DNA of 46,792 nt from a virus. Location of the stretch: IMG/VR virus record IMGVR_UViG_3300045988_109821, positions 1-46,792 of that record; one strand, given 5' to 3'. The notes below the pieces were generated by a model, which searched no databases, had not been told where the DNA came from, and saw only the letters and a list, made by a program, of their open reading frames with translations. A program made the translations under genes and the position numbers. Position 1 is the stretch's first letter. Each line of letters begins with the position of its first letter. Shown one piece after another: positions 1 to 46,792 of the stretch.

Positions 1-119
1 ATTTTTTTTTCAAATTTGATTTTGATATTTTTTTTAATTATATAAATATATTATTGTAATTATATAATATAACTGTATAATGAAAACCAATTAAACAAAA
101 TACGACAAAAAATCGTAAA
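1..119. repeat. Left copy of a direct terminal repeat (identical to 46674-46792). True length is at least 119 bp because the window edge truncates it.
   Basis: Exact sequence identity between the first and last 119 nt of the window. Confidence 0.9.
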
Positions 120-455
120 ATTTTAAAAAAATTGATGTTAAACAGAAAGTAAAAATGAATTTTCAATGTATAAGTTTTCTATATAGTTTTTACCAATGTG
201 TCATAATTCGACAATGTAAAAATATGTAATATATGTAATAATGTGTGTAACTGGTTGTGTCTGCATCTTGTGTAATAATGTGAATTTTACAAATTGAAAG
301 GTCATAAATAAGAGAAAGAGAGAAAATATTTTAGTGTATGTGTAATTGTTACGCATACCTGGGGGTGGGTTTGAAATGATGTCTATATGCGTCCTTGCCT
401 GTGCGTGATATATTATATTAAGATTTTTCTCCCTCTAACCTCATAAAATAAAAAA

Positions 456-484
456 TTTACAAAAAACCAAAAGTGTGCTATAAT
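456..484 (+). promoter_or_regulatory. Sigma-A-type promoter: -35 TTTACA, 17-bp spacer, extended -10 TGTGCTATAAT.
   Basis: Consensus hexamers read directly. The same TGTGCTATAAT element recurs at 20849-20859. Confidence 0.6.
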
Positions 485-499
485 GTAACTGGTGATAAT

Positions 500-1009
500 A
501 TGACAGAACAGGAACTAGATGCCATCTTTGGTACCAGTGCTTTATTTGATAAGGATTCTTCAGAATATAAGGAAGCAAACATATATTCGAGTATTGAGAA
601 AGAGAAAAGGAAACTCACTTTAGAGGACCCTTTATCTGTAGCACTATCTCAGGCTACACATTTAGATGACAATAAGAAAGAAAGATATAACTATTTAGCC
701 AGTCTGTATACAGCTGACATGGCGAAGAATATATTTAAGAATCAGTTTGATTTAGCTGAGAAGTATAGTAATACTACAGTTGATGAGTGGAATGACTTTT
801 TAGCTGATAGAATCGTAAGTGTATATATACAGAAGCACAAAAGAACACTTTTAAAAGCTGCAGCTGAGGATAACTTAGCCAACCCCACAGCTAAAAATAA
901 GCGTGATAACTTACAACTTATTAAGAATCTAGAGGAACAAGAGCAGCTAGAGAATAATAGAAACATATGTATTATAAGAATACCTGATATCTATGACGAT
1001 GCCTCATAG
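500..1009 (+). CDS. Hypothetical protein, possible terminase small subunit (first gene of the packaging module, upstream of terL).
   Basis: 169-aa ORF starting at ATG 500 with a GGTGA RBS. Called by position only, no recognisable motif. Confidence 0.35.
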   Translation: MTEQELDAIFGTSALFDKDSSEYKEANIYSSIEKEKRKLTLEDPLSVALSQATHLDDNKKERYNYLASLYTADMAKNIFKNQFDLAEKYSNTTVDEWNDFLADRIVSVYIQKHKRTLLKAAAEDNLANPTAKNKRDNLQLIKNLEEQEQLENNRNICIIRIPDIYDDAS

Positions 1010-1499
1010 GTAGCATAGAGTATATAATCAACAGACAGAAGTTATCAGGACGTCAGCATTATAGCCACAGCTTTGGAAACTATAATGTGAAACACTATGT
1101 GAGATTACATATTCTATGGTGCCTATAAGGTGCCAGGTAAAGCCACTTTTTCATTTACTTTAGTGCTACCCTCGTAGGTAGCATAGATTAGATATTCCAT
1201 ATTAACTATGGTCGATTAAAAAGTTGGTGAAAGTCCAGGTAATATCTATTCTATGGTGCTTATAAGGCACTAGAACTGATTTATTAGATTAGTTCTTCAA
1301 ATATTTTAAAGTGTTTGTTTATTCCCTATTGGTACGGGAATGAACTATCTCTAGTAGATAGTGATACTGAATAATAAAGGAACGCAATTAGACGTATTCT
1401 AATTAAAGGTAACTCAGACGAACATATTTTATTGAACTCGAGATAACAATAAAAACAATTCTAGGGAGAGAAGTGACGAAAGATTTTATTATTTAGTAT

Positions 1500-1521
1500 C
1501 AGTATCTATTAAGGATACTAA
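1500..1521. repeat. 22-bp element CAGTATCTATTAAGGATACTAA, which contains the palindrome AGTATC...GATACT. This is copy 1.
   Basis: Exact second copy at 1893-1914. Confidence 0.7.
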
Positions 1522-1892
1522 CAGGAGTTGTAAATAAATATTTTCCTGTTCCATATAGTTTACTTTTAGTAGTAACTATATTGTTTGATGTTTTTATATG
1601 TAACGCCAATTACATATAAAGAAATGCCTAGAAATAGTGGAGTAGCTTATACGCTGTATTTGTTATTCGAGATTGTTATATAACAATTGCATTACCTTTA
1701 ACAGGTAGTGTCTAGTGATATATAAATTGGGTATGCTGGGAAATGAAAGGGTGCAATATTAATTAAAAACTTGCAAGATTGATTAATATTCCTAGTGAAG
1801 AAATATAGGTTTGCAATCGACCAAATATTTAATCATGACTAATGAAGTAAGAATTGCTATATTAGTATGTAAAAAGCCTTTATATCATTAGA

Positions 1893-1914
1893 CAGTATCT
1901 ATTAAGGATACTAA
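1893..1914. repeat. Copy 2 of the 22-bp palindromic element.
   Basis: Identical to 1500-1521. Confidence 0.7.
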
Positions 1915-2067
1915 AATCTCCAATCTAATTATATACTGCTTTTTAGCAGTATGCTGACACTGAATTATACTTAAAACTTTTTAACCATCCTTATTTTAAA
2001 GCTATTTGTAATAGTTCGTTCAAAAACCATTTTGGTGTCAGCATAGTGTTAAAAAGGAGGTGAAACT

Positions 2068-2271
2068 GTGGAAAAGTTATCGGAAGATAAGACTTTTTTA
2101 GTATACAAATGTCCATGTTGTGGAGTTGGTAAGATTACTATTAATAAAACAAGTAATCATAAGTATGGTTATTGTGACACATGTGATGCAGCTTACATAC
2201 ATTATGTTCCATTACCTCATCAATTAGCTATGCACAAAGATAAACATAAGATAAAATTACAAATTGGAGGT
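2068..2271 (+). CDS. terL: Terminase large subunit, exon 1. It has an N-terminal CxxC...CxxC zinc ribbon and ends in ...KLQIGG, the first half of a GGxGS(A)KS Walker A motif. Translation may instead start at ATG 2230.
   Basis: GTG start after an AAGGAGG RBS. The ORF stops at TAA 2272-2274, immediately after a U that pairs with an intron guide sequence. Joining to 2951 gives QIGG-MGSAKS. Confidence 0.6.
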
Positions 2272-2950
2272 TAAATGCCCCTAGCCTCATAATTGGGTGA
2301 ATTGCTGGAAAACCTAGGGATAGGCAATCAGCAGCCAAGCTATTTAGGGATAAATAGAAGGTTCAACGACTAGTAGCATACCACTAGAACAGTGATGAAG
2401 CTGCCACGAGTGCCCAACACAAAAATGTGAAGATATAGTCTAAACTGTAACAATAATCCTTGACACAACACCCTACTTCCTATATAATTAGGGTAGGAGG
2501 TGTTGTAAATGAATAATGATAGTATTTGGATACTAATGAATGAAATAGGAAATAAGCCAATAAAAGGTCAATATTTTATATCTGATAAAGGTGAAGTTTA
2601 CAGTACTTTTACAAGAAAAATACTTAAACCTCAAACAGACCATAAAGGATATCAGTATATAGAAATTGGTAGTAAAAAATTTAAAATACATAGACTTGTT
2701 GGTAAATATTTTATACCTAATCCAAATAATTTACCCCAAATTAATCATATCGATTTGAATAAGGCAAATAATCATAAAGAAAATTTAGAGTGGGTTTCTA
2801 ATAGAGAAAATTATGAGTATTCCTTAAAAATGGGAACTTTTAGCAAATCTTTTTTAGAATATAAAGGGAATCCTAAAAAAATTTGGGAAAAACATTATGA
2901 AAAGAAATTACAGAACTAAAGGATAAAGAGCCTTTAGGTTAATATTATTG
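2272..2950 (+). mobile_element. Group I self-splicing intron carrying an HNH homing endonuclease ORF.
   Basis: P-like GAATTGCTGGAAAA (2299-2312); Q-like AATCAGCAGCC (2326-2336); R-like GTTCAACGACTAGT (2361-2374); S-like AAGATATAGTC (2430-2440); P7 pairing GACUA/UAGUC. The 5' exon ends ...GGAGGU (2266-2271), which pairs with GCCUC (2284-2288). The intron ends with G 2950. Confidence 0.7.
2509..2919 (+). CDS. HNH homing endonuclease (NUMOD4-like N-terminal domain plus HNH_3), intron-encoded.
   Basis: Motifs HRLVGKYFIPNP...INHIDLNKANNHKENLEWVSNREN. RBS GGTAGGAGG. Confidence 0.85.
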   Translation: MNNDSIWILMNEIGNKPIKGQYFISDKGEVYSTFTRKILKPQTDHKGYQYIEIGSKKFKIHRLVGKYFIPNPNNLPQINHIDLNKANNHKENLEWVSNRENYEYSLKMGTFSKSFLEYKGNPKKIWEKHYEKKLQN

Positions 2951-3664
2951 ATGGGCTCAGCTAAATCAAACTCAAGTGTTATGGAGATTATAAACCATGC
3001 ACTTACTGTACCATATGGGCAGACAATTATGTTAGCACAAACCCTAAAGCAACTTTCTAAGGCAATTATGCCTATTTTTGATGAATATTTACCACGTAAA
3101 TTTGTGGAAAAGTGGACTGATACTAAAGCTGAAATTGAAATAGTCCTTACTAATGGACACAAAATAACAGGATTTGCCAGTGATGATGAAGAAAAGTTTC
3201 GTTCTATGAATATAACAGCTTTCTATATAGAAGAAGCATCAGGTATAAGTCCTAAAATCTACCAGGAGTGTGTTAGACGTTTAAGAAACACACATGGTAT
3301 TATAGATGGTGTTGAACACTTTGTTGGTATTATATGTTCAAACCCAGCTCAAGGACCTATAAGAGATTTACTGTTTACAGCAGACCACATAGAAGGAAGT
3401 AAGTCTATTGCAGAAACTGTAAAAATGTATGAGAAGAGAATTACAAATAGAAACCCAGATTTGGCTGCATTTCTATCTAGTAGTAGAGATAATCCTTACT
3501 TACCACCTGGATTTGTACAATCTGTTGTAAATTCACTAACTCCAGAACAAGTAAGACTTTATGTAGACTGTATTATAGAGTATGCAGAGGGTGCTGTTTA
3601 TCCTGATATATTAAGTCATACATGTGAGCCATTTCCAATACCAGATGATTGGACTAGATATATT
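2951..3664 (+). CDS. terL: Terminase large subunit, exon 2 (ATPase domain; GSAKS Walker A remainder and AFYIEEAS Walker B-like). The 3' boundary is uncertain, somewhere in 3664-3679.
   Basis: Reading frame is open from 2927, with no start codon context of its own. It is continuous in frame with exon 1 after intron removal. Confidence 0.6.
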
Positions 3665-4637
3665 GCACATGACCCTGGTGAACATATAAAAATGTGCTAT
3701 ATTTAGTTTGTAATATAAGGAAATAATCTTTACATTATCCTGTGTATATGTTAAAATTATACCAGGGAGATGATAGAATGTTAGAAAATTATTTAATAAC
3801 TAAAGAAGGATTCATAATATCTTACAAAAATAAAGAACCTAGAGTGCTTAAAGGACAACTTGATAGAGATGGTTATTATAGGGTTGAAATAAGAGAAAAT
3901 AAAAAACGTAAATGGTGCTATTTACATAGGTTAGTAGCTATGCAGTATATACCTAATCCTGAAAATAAACCTGAAGTCAACCATATAAACGGAATAAAAA
4001 CTGATAACAGAGTTGAAAATTTAGAATGGGTTACGAGAAGTGAAAACGCAAAACATGCTGTTTTAAATGATATGTGTAAACAACCCAAAAAAGTTAATCA
4101 GTACAACACAAATGGTGAATTTATCAGACAATGGAATAGTATAAAAGAAGCTAAAAAGTGTCTAAATATAAAAAATGCACATATAAGTCAAGTCTGTCAG
4201 GGGCAAAGAAAAACAGCAGGTGGTTATATTTGGAGATATGATACTAATAAATCAAAATTAAATAAAGAAAAGGTTAGAGAAATAAGAGAAAATAAAGAGA
4301 ATCTTAACCGAGTCGCTTTAGCAAAGAAATATGGGGTATCATGCAGTTGTATACAACATATTCGTAGAGGAAGAACTTGGAAAGATGTAATGCCAGGTGA
4401 GTTTGGTGACAAACTCTAAGAAAACCGAAGAAAAAAACTGGAAGGCTAAGTCAGAAATGATATGCTAATCAGAGGTGAAGGACTTACTAAGTAAGCCCAG
4501 CCACAACGCATAGGAACTGAAAAGATATAATGTTCCCACGAGGCTTCGGCTCTCAGTCTTGCTGAGATGAAAAGATATGCTGGACTTATAGGAAACTATA
4601 AGAAGTAGAGGATAAAAAGCCTTTACGTTAACAAACG
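3665..4637 (+). mobile_element. Second intervening sequence in terL, a putative group I intron with a 5'-located HNH endonuclease ORF. Boundaries are approximate.
   Basis: The terL frame is interrupted. The region 4420-4640 is non-coding and structured, with Q/R/S-like elements (AATCAGAGG, CCACAACGCATAGGAAC, AAGATATAATGTTCC). The 9-nt ATGACCCTG occurs in frame at both 3669-3677 and 4642-4650. Confidence 0.45.
3742..4419 (+). CDS. HNH homing endonuclease (NUMOD4 plus HNH_3 plus C-terminal DNA-binding module).
   Basis: Motifs HRLVAMQYIPNP...VNHINGIKTDNRVENLEWVTRSEN. The C-terminal NAHISQVCQG motif is shared with the HNH at 37258-37836. Confidence 0.85.
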   Translation: MYMLKLYQGDDRMLENYLITKEGFIISYKNKEPRVLKGQLDRDGYYRVEIRENKKRKWCYLHRLVAMQYIPNPENKPEVNHINGIKTDNRVENLEWVTRSENAKHAVLNDMCKQPKKVNQYNTNGEFIRQWNSIKEAKKCLNIKNAHISQVCQGQRKTAGGYIWRYDTNKSKLNKEKVREIRENKENLNRVALAKKYGVSCSCIQHIRRGRTWKDVMPGEFGDKL

Positions 4638-5306
4638 ATTAATGACCCTGCAGCTATTTTATTAGGAGCACAAGACCCAAATACAGGTATAATCTATTTC
4701 TATAGAGAATATTATAAGACAAATCAGGTGCTAGCACAGGTTGCTCCTGAGTTTAAGAAAATGATAAGTGATATACCACAGGGTTGCTTGCATATGCCCC
4801 TTATAGACCCATCTGCAGATAAGAGAAGTAAGACAACAGGTCGTACATATAAACAACAACTACAACTTGAACATGGTATAGTGACAAAATGTGCTATAAA
4901 TAATATTGAGGATGGTATTCAGAGGGTTAAAAATATGATGTATGCAGGTTTACTTGTATTCTTTAATAACTTGACATACACTTTACGTGAGGGTTGTGAG
5001 TATAGATATCCTACACAAGAAGAAAGAAATAAGAATAAAAATCTAGGTGAGAAGCCTATAGATAAGAATAACCACTTAATGGACTGTTTAAGATATATTT
5101 GTCAAGAAGTCCCTTATGACTATATAGATATGAAACGTGTTGCATATTCAAATTACATAGAATTTTTTGATAAGCAAAGAAGAGGAAGTGCAGACATAAA
5201 GAAATCATTGTCTTTTAGGGAAATAATTGATATAATAAATAGGGATAATATAGAAGAGAGCATGAACACAAGACAGTGTTGTGCGGGAGGTTATAGTATA
5301 TGCTAA
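4638..5306 (+). CDS. terL: Terminase large subunit, exon 3 (RNaseH-like nuclease domain). The 5' boundary is uncertain, somewhere in 4638-4651.
   Basis: The frame opens at 4632 with (I)NDPAAILLGAQDPNTGIIYFY, and contains NHLMDCLRY (a typical terminase nuclease-domain motif). No start codon or RBS of its own. Confidence 0.6.
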   Translation: MNDPAAILLGAQDPNTGIIYFYREYYKTNQVLAQVAPEFKKMISDIPQGCLHMPLIDPSADKRSKTTGRTYKQQLQLEHGIVTKCAINNIEDGIQRVKNMMYAGLLVFFNNLTYTLREGCEYRYPTQEERNKNKNLGEKPIDKNNHLMDCLRYICQEVPYDYIDMKRVAYSNYIEFFDKQRRGSADIKKSLSFREIIDIINRDNIEESMNTRQCCAGGYSIC

Positions 5307-5470
5307 AATTTTTTAGAAAGTTAAAATGGTTGATTAAAAATCAAGACAAGATTGAAAAATTATTACAAACTACAGAAAAGAAAAAAGACACAAAAAATTA
5401 TTCGATACTAGGTGTTCCTAATTATCAATTAGACTATATTAATGATATTTTAGAAACAGATAAGAAGTAG
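5300..5470 (+). CDS. Small hypothetical protein (56 aa) between terL and portal.
   Basis: ATG overlaps the terL stop (ATGCTAA). The ORF fills the gap exactly. It is below the cutoff of the ORF track. Confidence 0.35.
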   Translation: MLKFFRKLKWLIKNQDKIEKLLQTTEKKKDTKNYSILGVPNYQLDYINDILETDKK

Positions 5471-45266: not shown

Positions 45267-45572
45267 TTATTTTTCATATTCTAAACCTCCGTTATCTTTA
45301 TATGTGATTGTCCCTTTTTTCTTTAATAACTCCCAGTCTTTTTGATGCAAACCCTCTTGAAAAAAGAACTCTTTTTGATGTCTCGTTGTAGTTTGTGAAA
45401 AGTAACCATTATATGTAAATATAGTTTTATCATCTATAGTGTGTTTAACACGAGCCACTAAAGTATCATAACTATATAGTTCTTTAGTAACATTAACGCC
45501 ATCAATTAATTTAATTTGTGCTTTTCCATAAAAACTCTTTCTATTGTCATAAACTGAATATAATTCATACAT
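45267..45572 (-). CDS. Hypothetical protein (101 aa) with a YSYDTLVA...SQTTTRHQ motif.
   Basis: Start at ATG 45572 after an AAAGGGGA RBS. Confidence 0.4.
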   Translation of the reverse strand: MYELYSVYDNRKSFYGKAQIKLIDGVNVTKELYSYDTLVARVKHTIDDKTIFTYNGYFSQTTTRHQKEFFFQEGLHQKDWELLKKKGTITYKDNGGLEYEK

Positions 45573-45574
45573 AA

Positions 45575-45895
45575 TTAGTTCATCCCCTTTTTTATTTCTT
45601 CTAGTACTTGCCCTAAAATATAGCATCTAATAGTAACATCGCAAGCTTCAGGGTTATCAAGCTCATAATCAGCCCCAAACTCATCGCAAGCCTCTTTTAA
45701 TAAGTCCATGTTGTGACACAAGTTTTGCTCTGCTTCCCATGTGTTAAGTGTATAAGAACCACTCATGTTACCGGTAATACTGTCTTCATTAAATAAAGTA
45801 TCATATAAATCATCGGTTACTTCTGTAATATTGTTTTCTTCCATGTAGTTTTTGATATCTTCTTTGACTGCTTCTAAATAATTATACTTTTTCAT
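45575..45895 (-). CDS. Small strongly acidic protein (106 aa), a candidate DNA-mimic or anti-restriction protein.
   Basis: High D/E content. Second or third gene from the right genome end. Confidence 0.3.
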   Translation of the reverse strand: MKKYNYLEAVKEDIKNYMEENNITEVTDDLYDTLFNEDSITGNMSGSYTLNTWEAEQNLCHNMDLLKEACDEFGADYELDNPEACDVTIRCYILGQVLEEIKKGMN

Positions 45896-45896
45896 A

Positions 45897-46001
45897 TTAT
45901 TTTAGCCCCTTTCTATTTTCTATTGAGTTTTGTAAAACCCTTACTCTTTCCAATTCTAATCTAGTTAATATTAACTTTTTAATAAATTCTTGTTTTGTCA
46001 T
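45897..46001 (-). CDS. 34-aa peptide ORF with a good RBS.
   Basis: RBS GATAGGAGAAG 7 nt upstream of the reverse-strand ATG at 46001. Stop 1 nt before the next ATG. Confidence 0.3.
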   Translation of the reverse strand: MTKQEFIKKLILTRLELERVRVLQNSIENRKGLK

Positions 46002-46038
46002 CTTTTATCTTCTCCTATCTAATTATAATATTTTTAAT

Positions 46039-46389
46039 TTACTTTCCTAAAACTTCATTGATAAAGTTATCTAATAACTTATTAATTTTAACAATCTTTT
46101 TATCATATGCTAAATCACTATTATATATGTTTTTTGCTTTTTCATTATATTTATCTACAACACCCACTGCAGAATATTCACCAAATGGTCTATAACCTGT
46201 CACAATTACAGTATTATAGTTAACTTGGTAGATGTCGGCATTCCATCCATAGACACCTTTAGTATAATATCTTGCTTCTTGTCCTTTCAATAAATACCAT
46301 GCAGAGCAATAGCCCACACTTATCACATTTTTATAGTTTTTAATAATTTCCTTTTTAGTTGTTTTTGTTTTCATTTTAATTATCCCCAA
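46039..46389 (-). CDS. Hypothetical early protein (116 aa, Tyr/Gly/Trp-rich).
   Basis: ORF with RBS. First large gene of the early arm. Confidence 0.45.
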   Translation of the reverse strand: MGIIKMKTKTTKKEIIKNYKNVISVGYCSAWYLLKGQEARYYTKGVYGWNADIYQVNYNTVIVTGYRPFGEYSAVGVVDKYNEKAKNIYNSDLAYDKKIVKINKLLDNFINEVLGK

Positions 46390-46440
46390 TCTAATTATAT
46401 TGTGCCTATTTTTAGGGAACAGGCAAACCCTAAATAATTA

Positions 46441-46542
46441 TTATCTATGTAGTAAACAATCTATGAATAATAGTGCGTATGTAGCTAATATAAATAGTAT
46501 TATCATTTTATATTTAGCTATAAAACTTTTTAACTTTTTCAT
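46441..46542 (-). CDS. 33-aa hydrophobic peptide, the first ORF of the early transcript.
   Basis: Perfect SD AAGGAGGA 7 nt upstream of the reverse-strand ATG at 46542. Single transmembrane-like segment. Confidence 0.4.
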   Translation of the reverse strand: MKKLKSFIAKYKMIILFILATYALLFIDCLLHR

Positions 46543-46567
46543 ACTGTTTTCCTCCTTGTCTGCTTTA

Positions 46568-46596
46568 ATATTATCACCAATTTTTGGTTATGTCAA
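46568..46596 (-). promoter_or_regulatory. Strong early promoter on the reverse strand: -35 TTGACA, 17-bp spacer, -10 TAATAT with an upstream TG.
   Basis: Reverse complement of 46568-46596 reads TTGACATAACCAAAAATTGGTGATAATAT. Confidence 0.6.
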
Positions 46597-46673
46597 GGCT
46601 TTTCTGTGAATTTTTTTGTTTTTTGTGTTTTTTTGGAATATTTACAAGTTGTTTGAAAATCTAGTTAGTGAAA

Positions 46674-46792
46674 ATTTTTTTTTCAAATTTGATTTTGATA
46701 TTTTTTTTAATTATATAAATATATTATTGTAATTATATAATATAACTGTATAATGAAAACCAATTAAACAAAATACGACAAAAAATCGTAAA
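46674..46792. repeat. Right copy of the direct terminal repeat (or circular-assembly overlap).
   Basis: Identical to 1-119. Confidence 0.9.

Follow-up and report, generated by a model that had tools for sequence, protein, structure and literature searches.

A group I intron with an HNH endonuclease reading frame at the Walker A codons of a phage large terminase gene

Here we report that the gene for the large terminase subunit (TerL) of a tailed phage is interrupted in the codons of its Walker A motif by an insert that holds a complete group I ribozyme core. The DNA analysed, referred to below as the window, is a stretch of 46,792 nucleotides (nt) from the IMG/VR virus record IMGVR_UViG_3300045988_109821 (positions 1 to 46,792). 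TerL is encoded in three pieces across 2068-5306, and each of the two gaps between them holds an HNH endonuclease open reading frame (ORF). The first gap, 2272-2950 (intron 1), is almost certainly a mobile self-splicing group I intron with its own endonuclease. Its ribozyme fold is held under selection at one exact site, and its removal restores TerL.

The limits of the insert follow from uninterrupted alleles of the same gene. Used as a protein query, the in-silico spliced product recovered P0001, a protein of 533 amino acids (aa) that differs from it at 2 residues, far from either junction. The contig encoding P0001 (L001) is 94-97% identical to the window on either side of both gaps, and at the first junction it reads GGAGGG/ATGGGC where the window has GGAGGT, 679 nt and then ATGGGC. 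The IMG/VR locus L009 is likewise uninterrupted, with a protein-level match of 100% in exon 1 and 99.6% in exon 2; its intron-less site reads ...ATTGGTGGTATGGGCTCAGC... From the DNA comparison alone there is an ambiguity of 1 nt (2271-2949 or 2272-2950), and either choice encodes Gly-Gly-Met. We chose 2272-2950 because it obeys the group I rule that a U precedes the splice site and a G closes the intron. The in-silico spliced product then reads ...KLQIGG/MGSAKS... and a continuous TerL frame of 533 codons is restored. Compared with L001 and L009 the TerL exons show 96-97% nucleotide identity and almost no amino-acid change, and are under clear purifying selection. The first three bases of the intron (2272-2274) are a TAA in frame directly after exon 1, and this stop codon rules out that the insert is an intein.

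The ribozyme structure was drawn manually, with the window sequence and the ORF-less copies described below as its basis, and was projected onto a MAFFT alignment of 14 copies of the intron from the same site (Table 1). In the window sequence all helices form without a single non-standard pair. An unconstrained minimum free energy (MFE) fold of 2260-2510 independently recovers P1 (with U2271.G2284), P3, P4, P5, P6/6a, P7.1 and P8. Across the 14 copies 98.3% of the cells are paired, and 22 of the 65 pairs have changes on both sides. This level of pairing and covariation was reached by none of 500 column shuffles, and slid controls were 25-41% paired. Covariation is present in P3, P5, P6, P6a, P7.1, P8, P9 and P9.1. 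The U.G wobble at the P1 splice site occurs in 14/14 copies, and the predicted guanosine-binding pair G2368-C2440, which lies beside the bulged C2367, is invariant in all of them. The P10 pairing (AUGGG/CCCAU) has its full 5 bp in 12 of the 13 other aligned copies and one mismatch in the remaining copy (L156). P2 is absent and a P7.1 insert is present; the layout (P1, no P2, P3-P9, P7.1, P9.1) is that of an IA-like subgroup.

Much of this had been anticipated in an initial annotation made from the window sequence. The conserved elements it had named were all located: P (GAATTGCTGGAAAA) and Q (AATCAGCAGCC) at 2299-2336, where they were matched by 0 of 100 shuffles, R (GTTCAACGACTAGT) at 2361-2374 and S (AAGATATAGTC) at 2430-2440. 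The P7 pairing that it drew between R and S (GACUA/UAGUC) was confirmed and is refined here to six pairs with the bulged C2367. Its P1, in which the exon end GGAGGU pairs with a GCCUC guide and U2271 forms a wobble with G2284, was found as stated and is the one recovered by the MFE fold, and the insert does end with G2950, the omega-G, which is a G in 14/14 copies. The annotation had also proposed a search with the Rfam Intron_gpI model. On the 4-kb stretch 1000-5000, scanned with permissive filters, this model (RF00028) gave a match of 66.5 bits (E = 7.4e-16) at 2216-2453, the curated gathering cut-off being 50 bits; the same search of the whole window at gathering thresholds returned nothing, a result taken up below. 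The match spans the full model (positions 1-253), with the P1/P2 region of the model placed on exon sequence, not on the true P1, and with P7.1 treated as an insertion.

The copies of the intron at the same site were gathered from the contigs of database homologues that had been called as ORFs starting exactly with MGSAKS, together with IMG/VR and metagenome matches. A single scan of metagenome contigs with a pattern of internal guide sequence, P3 and P4 gave 2 loci; most copies came via the contigs of truncated ORFs. ORF-bearing copies measure 676-733 nt (L004, which is identical to L138, L014, L016, L146, L155, L156 and a partial copy in L137), copies with ORF remnants 292-294 nt (L142 and L144), and minimal ORF-less copies 241-261 nt (L145, L147, L148, L149, L150 and L154). 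L146 and L147 encode an identical TerL protein and share their intron core; the ORF is present in L146 and absent from L147. Eleven of the 14 IMG/VR TerL loci that span the junction carry no insert (a 15th, L003, starts within exon 2). The end of exon 1 reads GGAGGT in 16/16 intron-bearing alleles and in 1/12 intron-less alleles, the others of which end in GGTGGA, GGTGGT or GGAGGG (Fisher p = 5.6e-7, not corrected for relatedness). The empty site, the ORF-bearing form, the decayed ORF and the ORF-less form are together the pattern expected of a homing element.

The endonuclease ORF fills the terminal loop of P9, so that the initial placement of this ORF in a 3' (P9) extension holds and can be narrowed to the loop closed by 2445-2450 and 2908-2913. 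The last codons of the ORF double as the 3' strand of P9, and the ORF stops within the P9.1 stem. The ORF product matches PF13392 (HNH_3, E = 4.7e-6), PF07463 (NUMOD4, 27.7 bits with a cut-off of 23.4) and I-HmuI (PDB 1U3E, E = 3.5e-12, over I-HmuI residues 7-109 of 174). It also matches PHROG 59 and PHROG 959, and it fits the short PHROG 959 type (profile of 138 positions). Intact ORFs of 134-137 aa are found in 7 other copies at 64-83% identity, and the HNH residues H80, N88, N92 and N101 are invariant in the 8 sequences. There is no Pfam match beyond residue 101, and a C-terminal helical or helix-turn-helix (HTH) DNA-binding domain (NUMOD1 or I-HmuI NUMOD-like) was not found there. Upstream of the ORF lies a promoter-like site, of which TTGACA is kept in 7/8 ORF-bearing copies and a TATAAT-like -10 in 8/8, with one variant each in L014, L155 and L137. 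A hairpin at the same place is kept in all 8 copies and has double changes in 3/12 pairs, a modest covariation. Control of endonuclease expression is suggested because the consensus promoter sits inside this hairpin, which covers the ribosome-binding site of the ORF.

Table 1. Features of the interrupted TerL gene and of intron 1 (positions in the window)
Feature	Position	Strand	Description
TerL exon 1	2068..2271	+	68 codons: N-terminal four-Cys zinc ribbon, strand beta-1, first two Gly of Walker A; collinear with uninterrupted P0001
Group I intron 1	2272..2950	+	679 nt; L001, L009 and 10 other TerL loci lack it; RF00028 match; covariation on 14 copies
P1	2267-2273 / 2282-2288	+	U2271.G2284 at 5' splice site; all seven pairs conserved, six in 14/14 copies; MFE fold
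P10 guide CCCCU	2278..2282	+	pairs with exon 2 AUGGG 2951-2955; 4/5 pairs in window
Internal guide GCCUC	2284-2288	+	starts at G2284, the 13th intron base; GGAGGT at the exon 1 end (2271)
P3	2293-2298 / 2412-2417	+	UA/CG compensatory change in 6 copies
P4	2303-2308 / 2328-2333	+	invariant; encloses P5; covers the P and Q elements of the initial annotation
P5	2313-2316 / 2321-2324	+	GGGA loop; 3/4 pairs with double changes
P6	2334-2336 / 2360-2362	+	MFE fold; covariation
P6a	2340-2346 / 2351-2357	+	multiple compensatory changes
P7	A2366, 2368-2372 / 2436-2441	+	six pairs, C2367 bulged; Rfam alignment; invariant in 14/14 copies; 5' strand within the R element of the initial annotation
P7.1	2373-2377 / 2400-2404, inner helix 2382-2385 / 2391-2394	+	3/5 outer pairs with double changes
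P8	2418-2421 / 2426-2429	+	2/4 pairs with double changes
J8/7 and P7 3' strand	2430..2441 (P7 strand 2436-2441)	+	contains the S element of the initial annotation
P9	2445-2450 (CUGUAA) / 2908-2913 (UUACAG)	+	CUGUAG/CUACAG and CUGCAA/UUGCAG variants keep pairing
Promoter-like site TTGACA-17 nt-TATAAT	2460..2488	+	12/12 consensus positions; in P9 loop, upstream of HNH ORF; putative function
Hairpin	2465..2506	+	3' arm contains HNH ORF Shine-Dalgarno AGGAGG (2495-2500)
HNH homing-endonuclease ORF	2509..2919	+	136 aa; NUMOD4 + HNH_3; I-HmuI homologue
P9.1	2916-2922 / 2931-2937	+	invariant AUAAAGAG loop; 3/7 pairs with double changes; includes ORF stop codon 2917-2919
omega-G	2950	+	last intron nucleotide; G in 14/14 copies
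TerL exon 2	2951..3679	+	243 codons, begins MGSAKS (remainder of Walker A), ATPase domain; Pfam Terminase_3 + Terminase_6N
Intron 2	3680-4637	+	divergent group I intron in TerL with HNH ORF 3778-4419; boundaries fixed by L001 and L009
TerL exon 3	4638..5306	+	nuclease domain; weak Terminase_3C

By alignment and by structural model, the splice junction lies in the Walker A P-loop, between its second and third codons. The initial annotation had read a Walker A motif (QIGG-MGSAKS) across the junction, and homologues as well as an AlphaFold model bear this out. In alignments of 22 and of 38 homologues, the latter reaching as low as 36% identity, G70 and K73 never vary and G67/G68 hardly do (at least 90% conserved), and GG/MGSAKS aligns with GGFGSGKT and GGYGTGKT of a more distant branch. 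The AlphaFold (AF2) model of the uninterrupted protein (predicted local distance difference test, pLDDT, 86.9) has a strand at 62-67, a loop at 68-72 and a helix at 73-87. The best Foldseek matches of the TerL model are the TerL of phage D6E (1.5e-20), T4 gp17 and Sf6 gp2. PF04466 and PF03237 match exon 2, in line with the N-terminal ASCE ATPase of a Terminase_3 (PBSX-type) large terminase, whose Walker A motif is read across the junction. On exon 3 PF17288 stays below its curated cut-off (19.3 and 26.7 bits), and because of this the C-terminal RNase H-like nuclease domain is assigned from sequence matches to TerL nuclease domains (5oea, 4dkw). With the spliced TerL as query, a sequence search of the PDB covered the nuclease domain only, and the Walker A motif could not be placed by it.

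A zinc ribbon (window 2068-2210, TerL residues 1-48) is fused to the TerL ATPase. It is confidently modelled as a small beta module, and the 68-codon exon 1 ORF gives a weak zinc-ribbon match; the best-matching solved terminases are shorter (about 400-450 residues). This CxxC...CxxC module had been noted as unusual. The module itself is present, but it is not peculiar to the source phage: throughout the TerL clade, in homologues with as little as 36% identity, the four cysteines (C15, C18, C36 and C39) never change, and the ribbon is therefore a feature of the clade.

Group I introns splice in two steps, that is by two transesterifications, of which the first is initiated by guanosine. For intron 1 we infer catalysis of this kind (guanosine-dependent self-splicing), a homing activity, and regulation by the promoter and the hairpin. 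In the pre-mRNA the exon 1 end GGAGGU would pair with the guide GCCUC and form P1 with its U2271.G2284 wobble. Following the established mechanism, an external guanosine bound at the P7 pair G2368-C2440 would then attack after U2271. P10 would align exon 2 (AUGGG), omega-G2950 would take the place of the external guanosine, and ligation of the exons would give the continuous 533-codon TerL. In a mixed infection the 136-aa HNH protein would most likely nick or cut intron-less TerL at the conserved P-loop codons, and repair would then copy the intron into the empty allele. The endonuclease would be silent on the read-through TerL pre-mRNA and translated only from its own shorter transcript, as for T4 intron endonucleases.

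Several observations weigh against this account or reduce the force of its evidence. The Rfam scan of the whole window (46.8 kb) at gathering thresholds gave 0 matches, and a scan of 21.7 kb in E-value mode missed the homologous copies in L004 and L147. We attribute both results to the speed filters, because the 4-kb scan gives 66.5 bits and the 21.7-kb scan misses clear homologues; it follows that further introns elsewhere in the window could be hidden from Rfam in the same way. P1, P4 and P7 are invariant, so that they show conservation only and are uninformative for covariation. The 14 copies are related to each other, and both the covariation figures and the Fisher test ignore this kinship. 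Co-conversion should leave single-nucleotide changes clustered around the insertion sites; compared with L009 and L001, the window has 4-5 differences within 30 nt of the first junction where about 1-2 are expected, only a mild excess. As for the putative control of the endonuclease, promoter-like matches overall are no more frequent than chance (22 in the scan, 23.8 in shuffles), and the hairpin has a covariation term near zero. Two further points are the mismatch of P10 in the window (C2281.U2952) and the lack, in the endonuclease, of the C-terminal DNA-binding modules of I-HmuI.

Given the missing C-terminal modules of I-HmuI, the activity and the specificity of the predicted endonuclease are uncertain. 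The short HNH protein is nevertheless conserved and apparently mobile, and it might find its target at the TerL P-loop by a mode not yet described, perhaps aided by the intron RNA or by a phage protein. The 68-aa zinc-ribbon peptide, which the in-frame TAA lets unspliced RNA produce, might likewise have a part in packaging control. Both ideas are quite improbable, and the evidence lends support to neither. The mismatch in P10, which is absent from most other copies, and the lack of P2 would fit an intron that is decaying or crippled, splicing poorly or needing a host or phage protein cofactor, so that this TerL allele would be partly or wholly defective. The source is moreover a metagenome assembly, so that the phage need not be viable. 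Such a decay is quite improbable: all core helices pair fully in the window, the U.G wobble, the omega-G and the guanosine-binding pair are intact, the intron ORF is intact as well, and TerL is essential, with its exons under purifying selection.

There is also very little probability that the intron has been co-opted for control of TerL timing or dosage, with the unspliced RNA giving only the 68-aa zinc-ribbon peptide, which would then possibly have a role of its own. The TAA directly after exon 1 makes the unspliced RNA encode exactly the zinc-ribbon module, and two introns lie within one essential late gene; the 11 of 14 IMG/VR loci that span the junction without an intron argue against a required function. 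The mobE-split nrdA gene of Aeromonas phage Aeh1 provides a precedent for polypeptides that assemble in trans. That TerL is truly split in the same manner by a free-standing HNH cassette, with no splicing and with two polypeptides (the 68-aa zinc ribbon and a product starting at ATG 2951) assembling in trans, would agree with the ATG at the start of exon 2, the MGSAKS-initiated ORFs made by gene callers in many assemblies and the in-frame TAA directly after exon 1, but it has hardly any probability left in view of a group I core that is complete, has 22 covarying pairs and is kept even in ORF-less copies made of the ribozyme alone, the lack of a Shine-Dalgarno sequence at normal distance upstream of ATG 2951, the loss of the P-loop residues G67 and G68 (at least 90% conserved) from an M69-started product, and an exon-end GGAGGT constraint found only in intron-bearing alleles.

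A mobile group I intron in TerL is ordinary for phages, and the current understanding of group I introns is unchanged by it. In phages such introns are found in the genes of terminases, polymerases and ribonucleotide reductases, where they sit at the codons of critical residues (PMC3984707), and the TerL introns of Bastillevirinae (e.g. SIOphi), with up to three per gene and PHROG 59 HNH ORFs, self-splice in vitro (PMC11878797). The papers cited here describe no insertion within the Walker A codons of this clade. In Bastillevirinae (SIOphi) and in the Bacillus phages AR9 and PBS1, TerL is also interrupted by group I introns, often by several and often with a PHROG 59 HNH protein, and in AR9 a segment under the annotated TerL gene is ~76% identical to the intron 1 core over ~90 nt. 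These known TerL introns differ from intron 1 in TerL family, host range and insertion site. Lactobacillus phage LL-H, too, has a group I intron in its TerL gene. Since group I introns in phage terminase genes are already documented, intron 1 is an addition to a known class. Locally, its core is 70-84% similar to introns of crAss-like phages, of Bacillus phages (including the AR9 TerL segment) and of others. When 1900-5400 was compared by megablast with 50,697 phage records, neither the TerL gene nor intron 1 had a relative among them, and the only matches were to a 67-nt segment of intron 2; no annotated phage in this collection carries intron 1.

The closest likeness of the endonuclease is to I-HmuI, a nicking enzyme, from the DNA-polymerase intron of phage SPO1. 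Both proteins share the N-terminal NUMOD4-type and HNH catalytic domains, and both are encoded in phage group I introns of essential genes. The host gene differs, and I-HmuI has 174 aa with a C-terminal helical/HTH part whereas the HNH protein of intron 1 has 136 aa without it; the HNH protein of intron 2 does possess such a part (PF22083 and NUMOD1). The T4 introns likewise belong to the phage subgroup IA, lie at codons of conserved residues and have the endonuclease ORF looped out of the ribozyme. In the T4 nrdD (sunY) intron the core is 5' and the ORF is in the 3' P9 region. The T4 enzymes I-TevI and I-TevII are of the GIY-YIG type, in contrast to the HNH type of intron 1. T4 intron endonucleases have their own promoter in or beside a hairpin that sequesters the ribosome-binding site, and only the transcript from the internal promoter leaves this site free (PMC2988022). 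The promoter of intron 1 is of the sigma-70 consensus type, not a T4 late promoter, and its proposed regulation is read from the sequence only.

The intron has practical consequences as gene callers fragment the essential TerL gene: numerous database "proteins" begin with MGSAKS or break off after ...AHDPG. Hence TerL-based phage taxonomy and completeness checks can be misled, by split gene calls and by the Rfam default filters that miss the intron when whole genomes are scanned. The site also offers a clean natural example of the homing cycle, with all stages at one exact P-loop position of one TerL clade, accompanied by a second intron and, in some relatives, by an intein. The ORF-less versions of 241-261 nt are compact ribozymes with good comparative support.

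Introns and inteins have invaded the TerL clade at no fewer than three sites. Intron 2 of the window is not scored by RF00028, even in a scan of 261 nt at E<=10. Its P1 is formed by CCUGGU (3674-3679) and GCCAGG (4392-4397), with a U3679.G4392 wobble, and its P10 by UAAU (4388-4391) and AUUA (4638-4641); a P2 hairpin lies at 4399-4416. P3 covaries with the relatives in L004 and L010, P7 reads A[C]GCAUA/UAUGCU, and the 3' part (P9, P9.1) resembles that of intron 1. The HNH ORF of intron 2 (HNH_3 + NUMOD1 + I-HmuI NUMOD-like, PF22083) is situated in the P1 loop, where it overlaps the guide sequence and P2. The relatives of intron 2 in L004 (ORF-less, 283 nt; 3487-3772) and L010 (2378-3132) are inserted 3 nt upstream, and the L010 copy has its ORF in a different loop. 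The homologues P0082, P0085 and P0096 are interrupted one codon upstream of the intron 2 site (...AHDP/K...), and therefore two neighbouring sites are used by related introns.

A second stretch of intron 2, ACCAGGG (3761-3767), was considered as the guide and rejected: it gives a non-canonical U-A, while GCCAGG (4392-4397) gives the U.G, an adjacent P10 and the P2 hairpin. ACCAGGG overlaps the Shine-Dalgarno region of the intron 2 ORF and is perfectly complementary to the end of exon 2, CCCUGGU (3673-3679); the helix could compete with the intron 2 P1, mask the ribosome-binding site, or both. The 3' ~67 nt of intron 2 (4568-4635; J8/7-P7'-P9-P9.1) are 85-98% identical to segments of Staphylococcus, Clostridioides, Arcanobacterium and Alicyclobacillus phages. 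In Staphylococcus phage BE20 the matching segment lies in an unannotated gap just downstream of an annotated HNH endonuclease gene. This similarity suggests that those phages may contain unannotated introns related to intron 2. The TerL homologues P0048 and P0063 have an intein (PF14890) after ...DKNNH, in the nuclease domain, and L004 has a ~1-kb insert (4217-5214) at the matching place in exon 3.

The source is a tailed phage of roughly 47 kb with 30% G+C (29.7% in the stretch analysed, AT-rich phage DNA). Because the left part of L001 aligns to window 45287-46792 and then runs on at window 1-1026, joining the window end to its start, the window is probably a complete, circularly permuted phage genome of ~46.8 kb; related contigs measure 44-48 kb. 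Between the ORF at 473-1009 and TerL there is an unusually long non-coding gap of ~1 kb (1010-2067) with dispersed direct repeats (1002/1170, 1110/1247, 1500/1893) and several inverted repeats. The matching region is 260 nt long and mostly unrelated in L001, and similarly long in L144 and L145. The scan of 1000-5000 gave no Rfam match in this gap, which might serve as a packaging-initiation region or encode an RNA. The window has a single tRNA gene, for tRNA-Cys (GCA), at 20704-20780.

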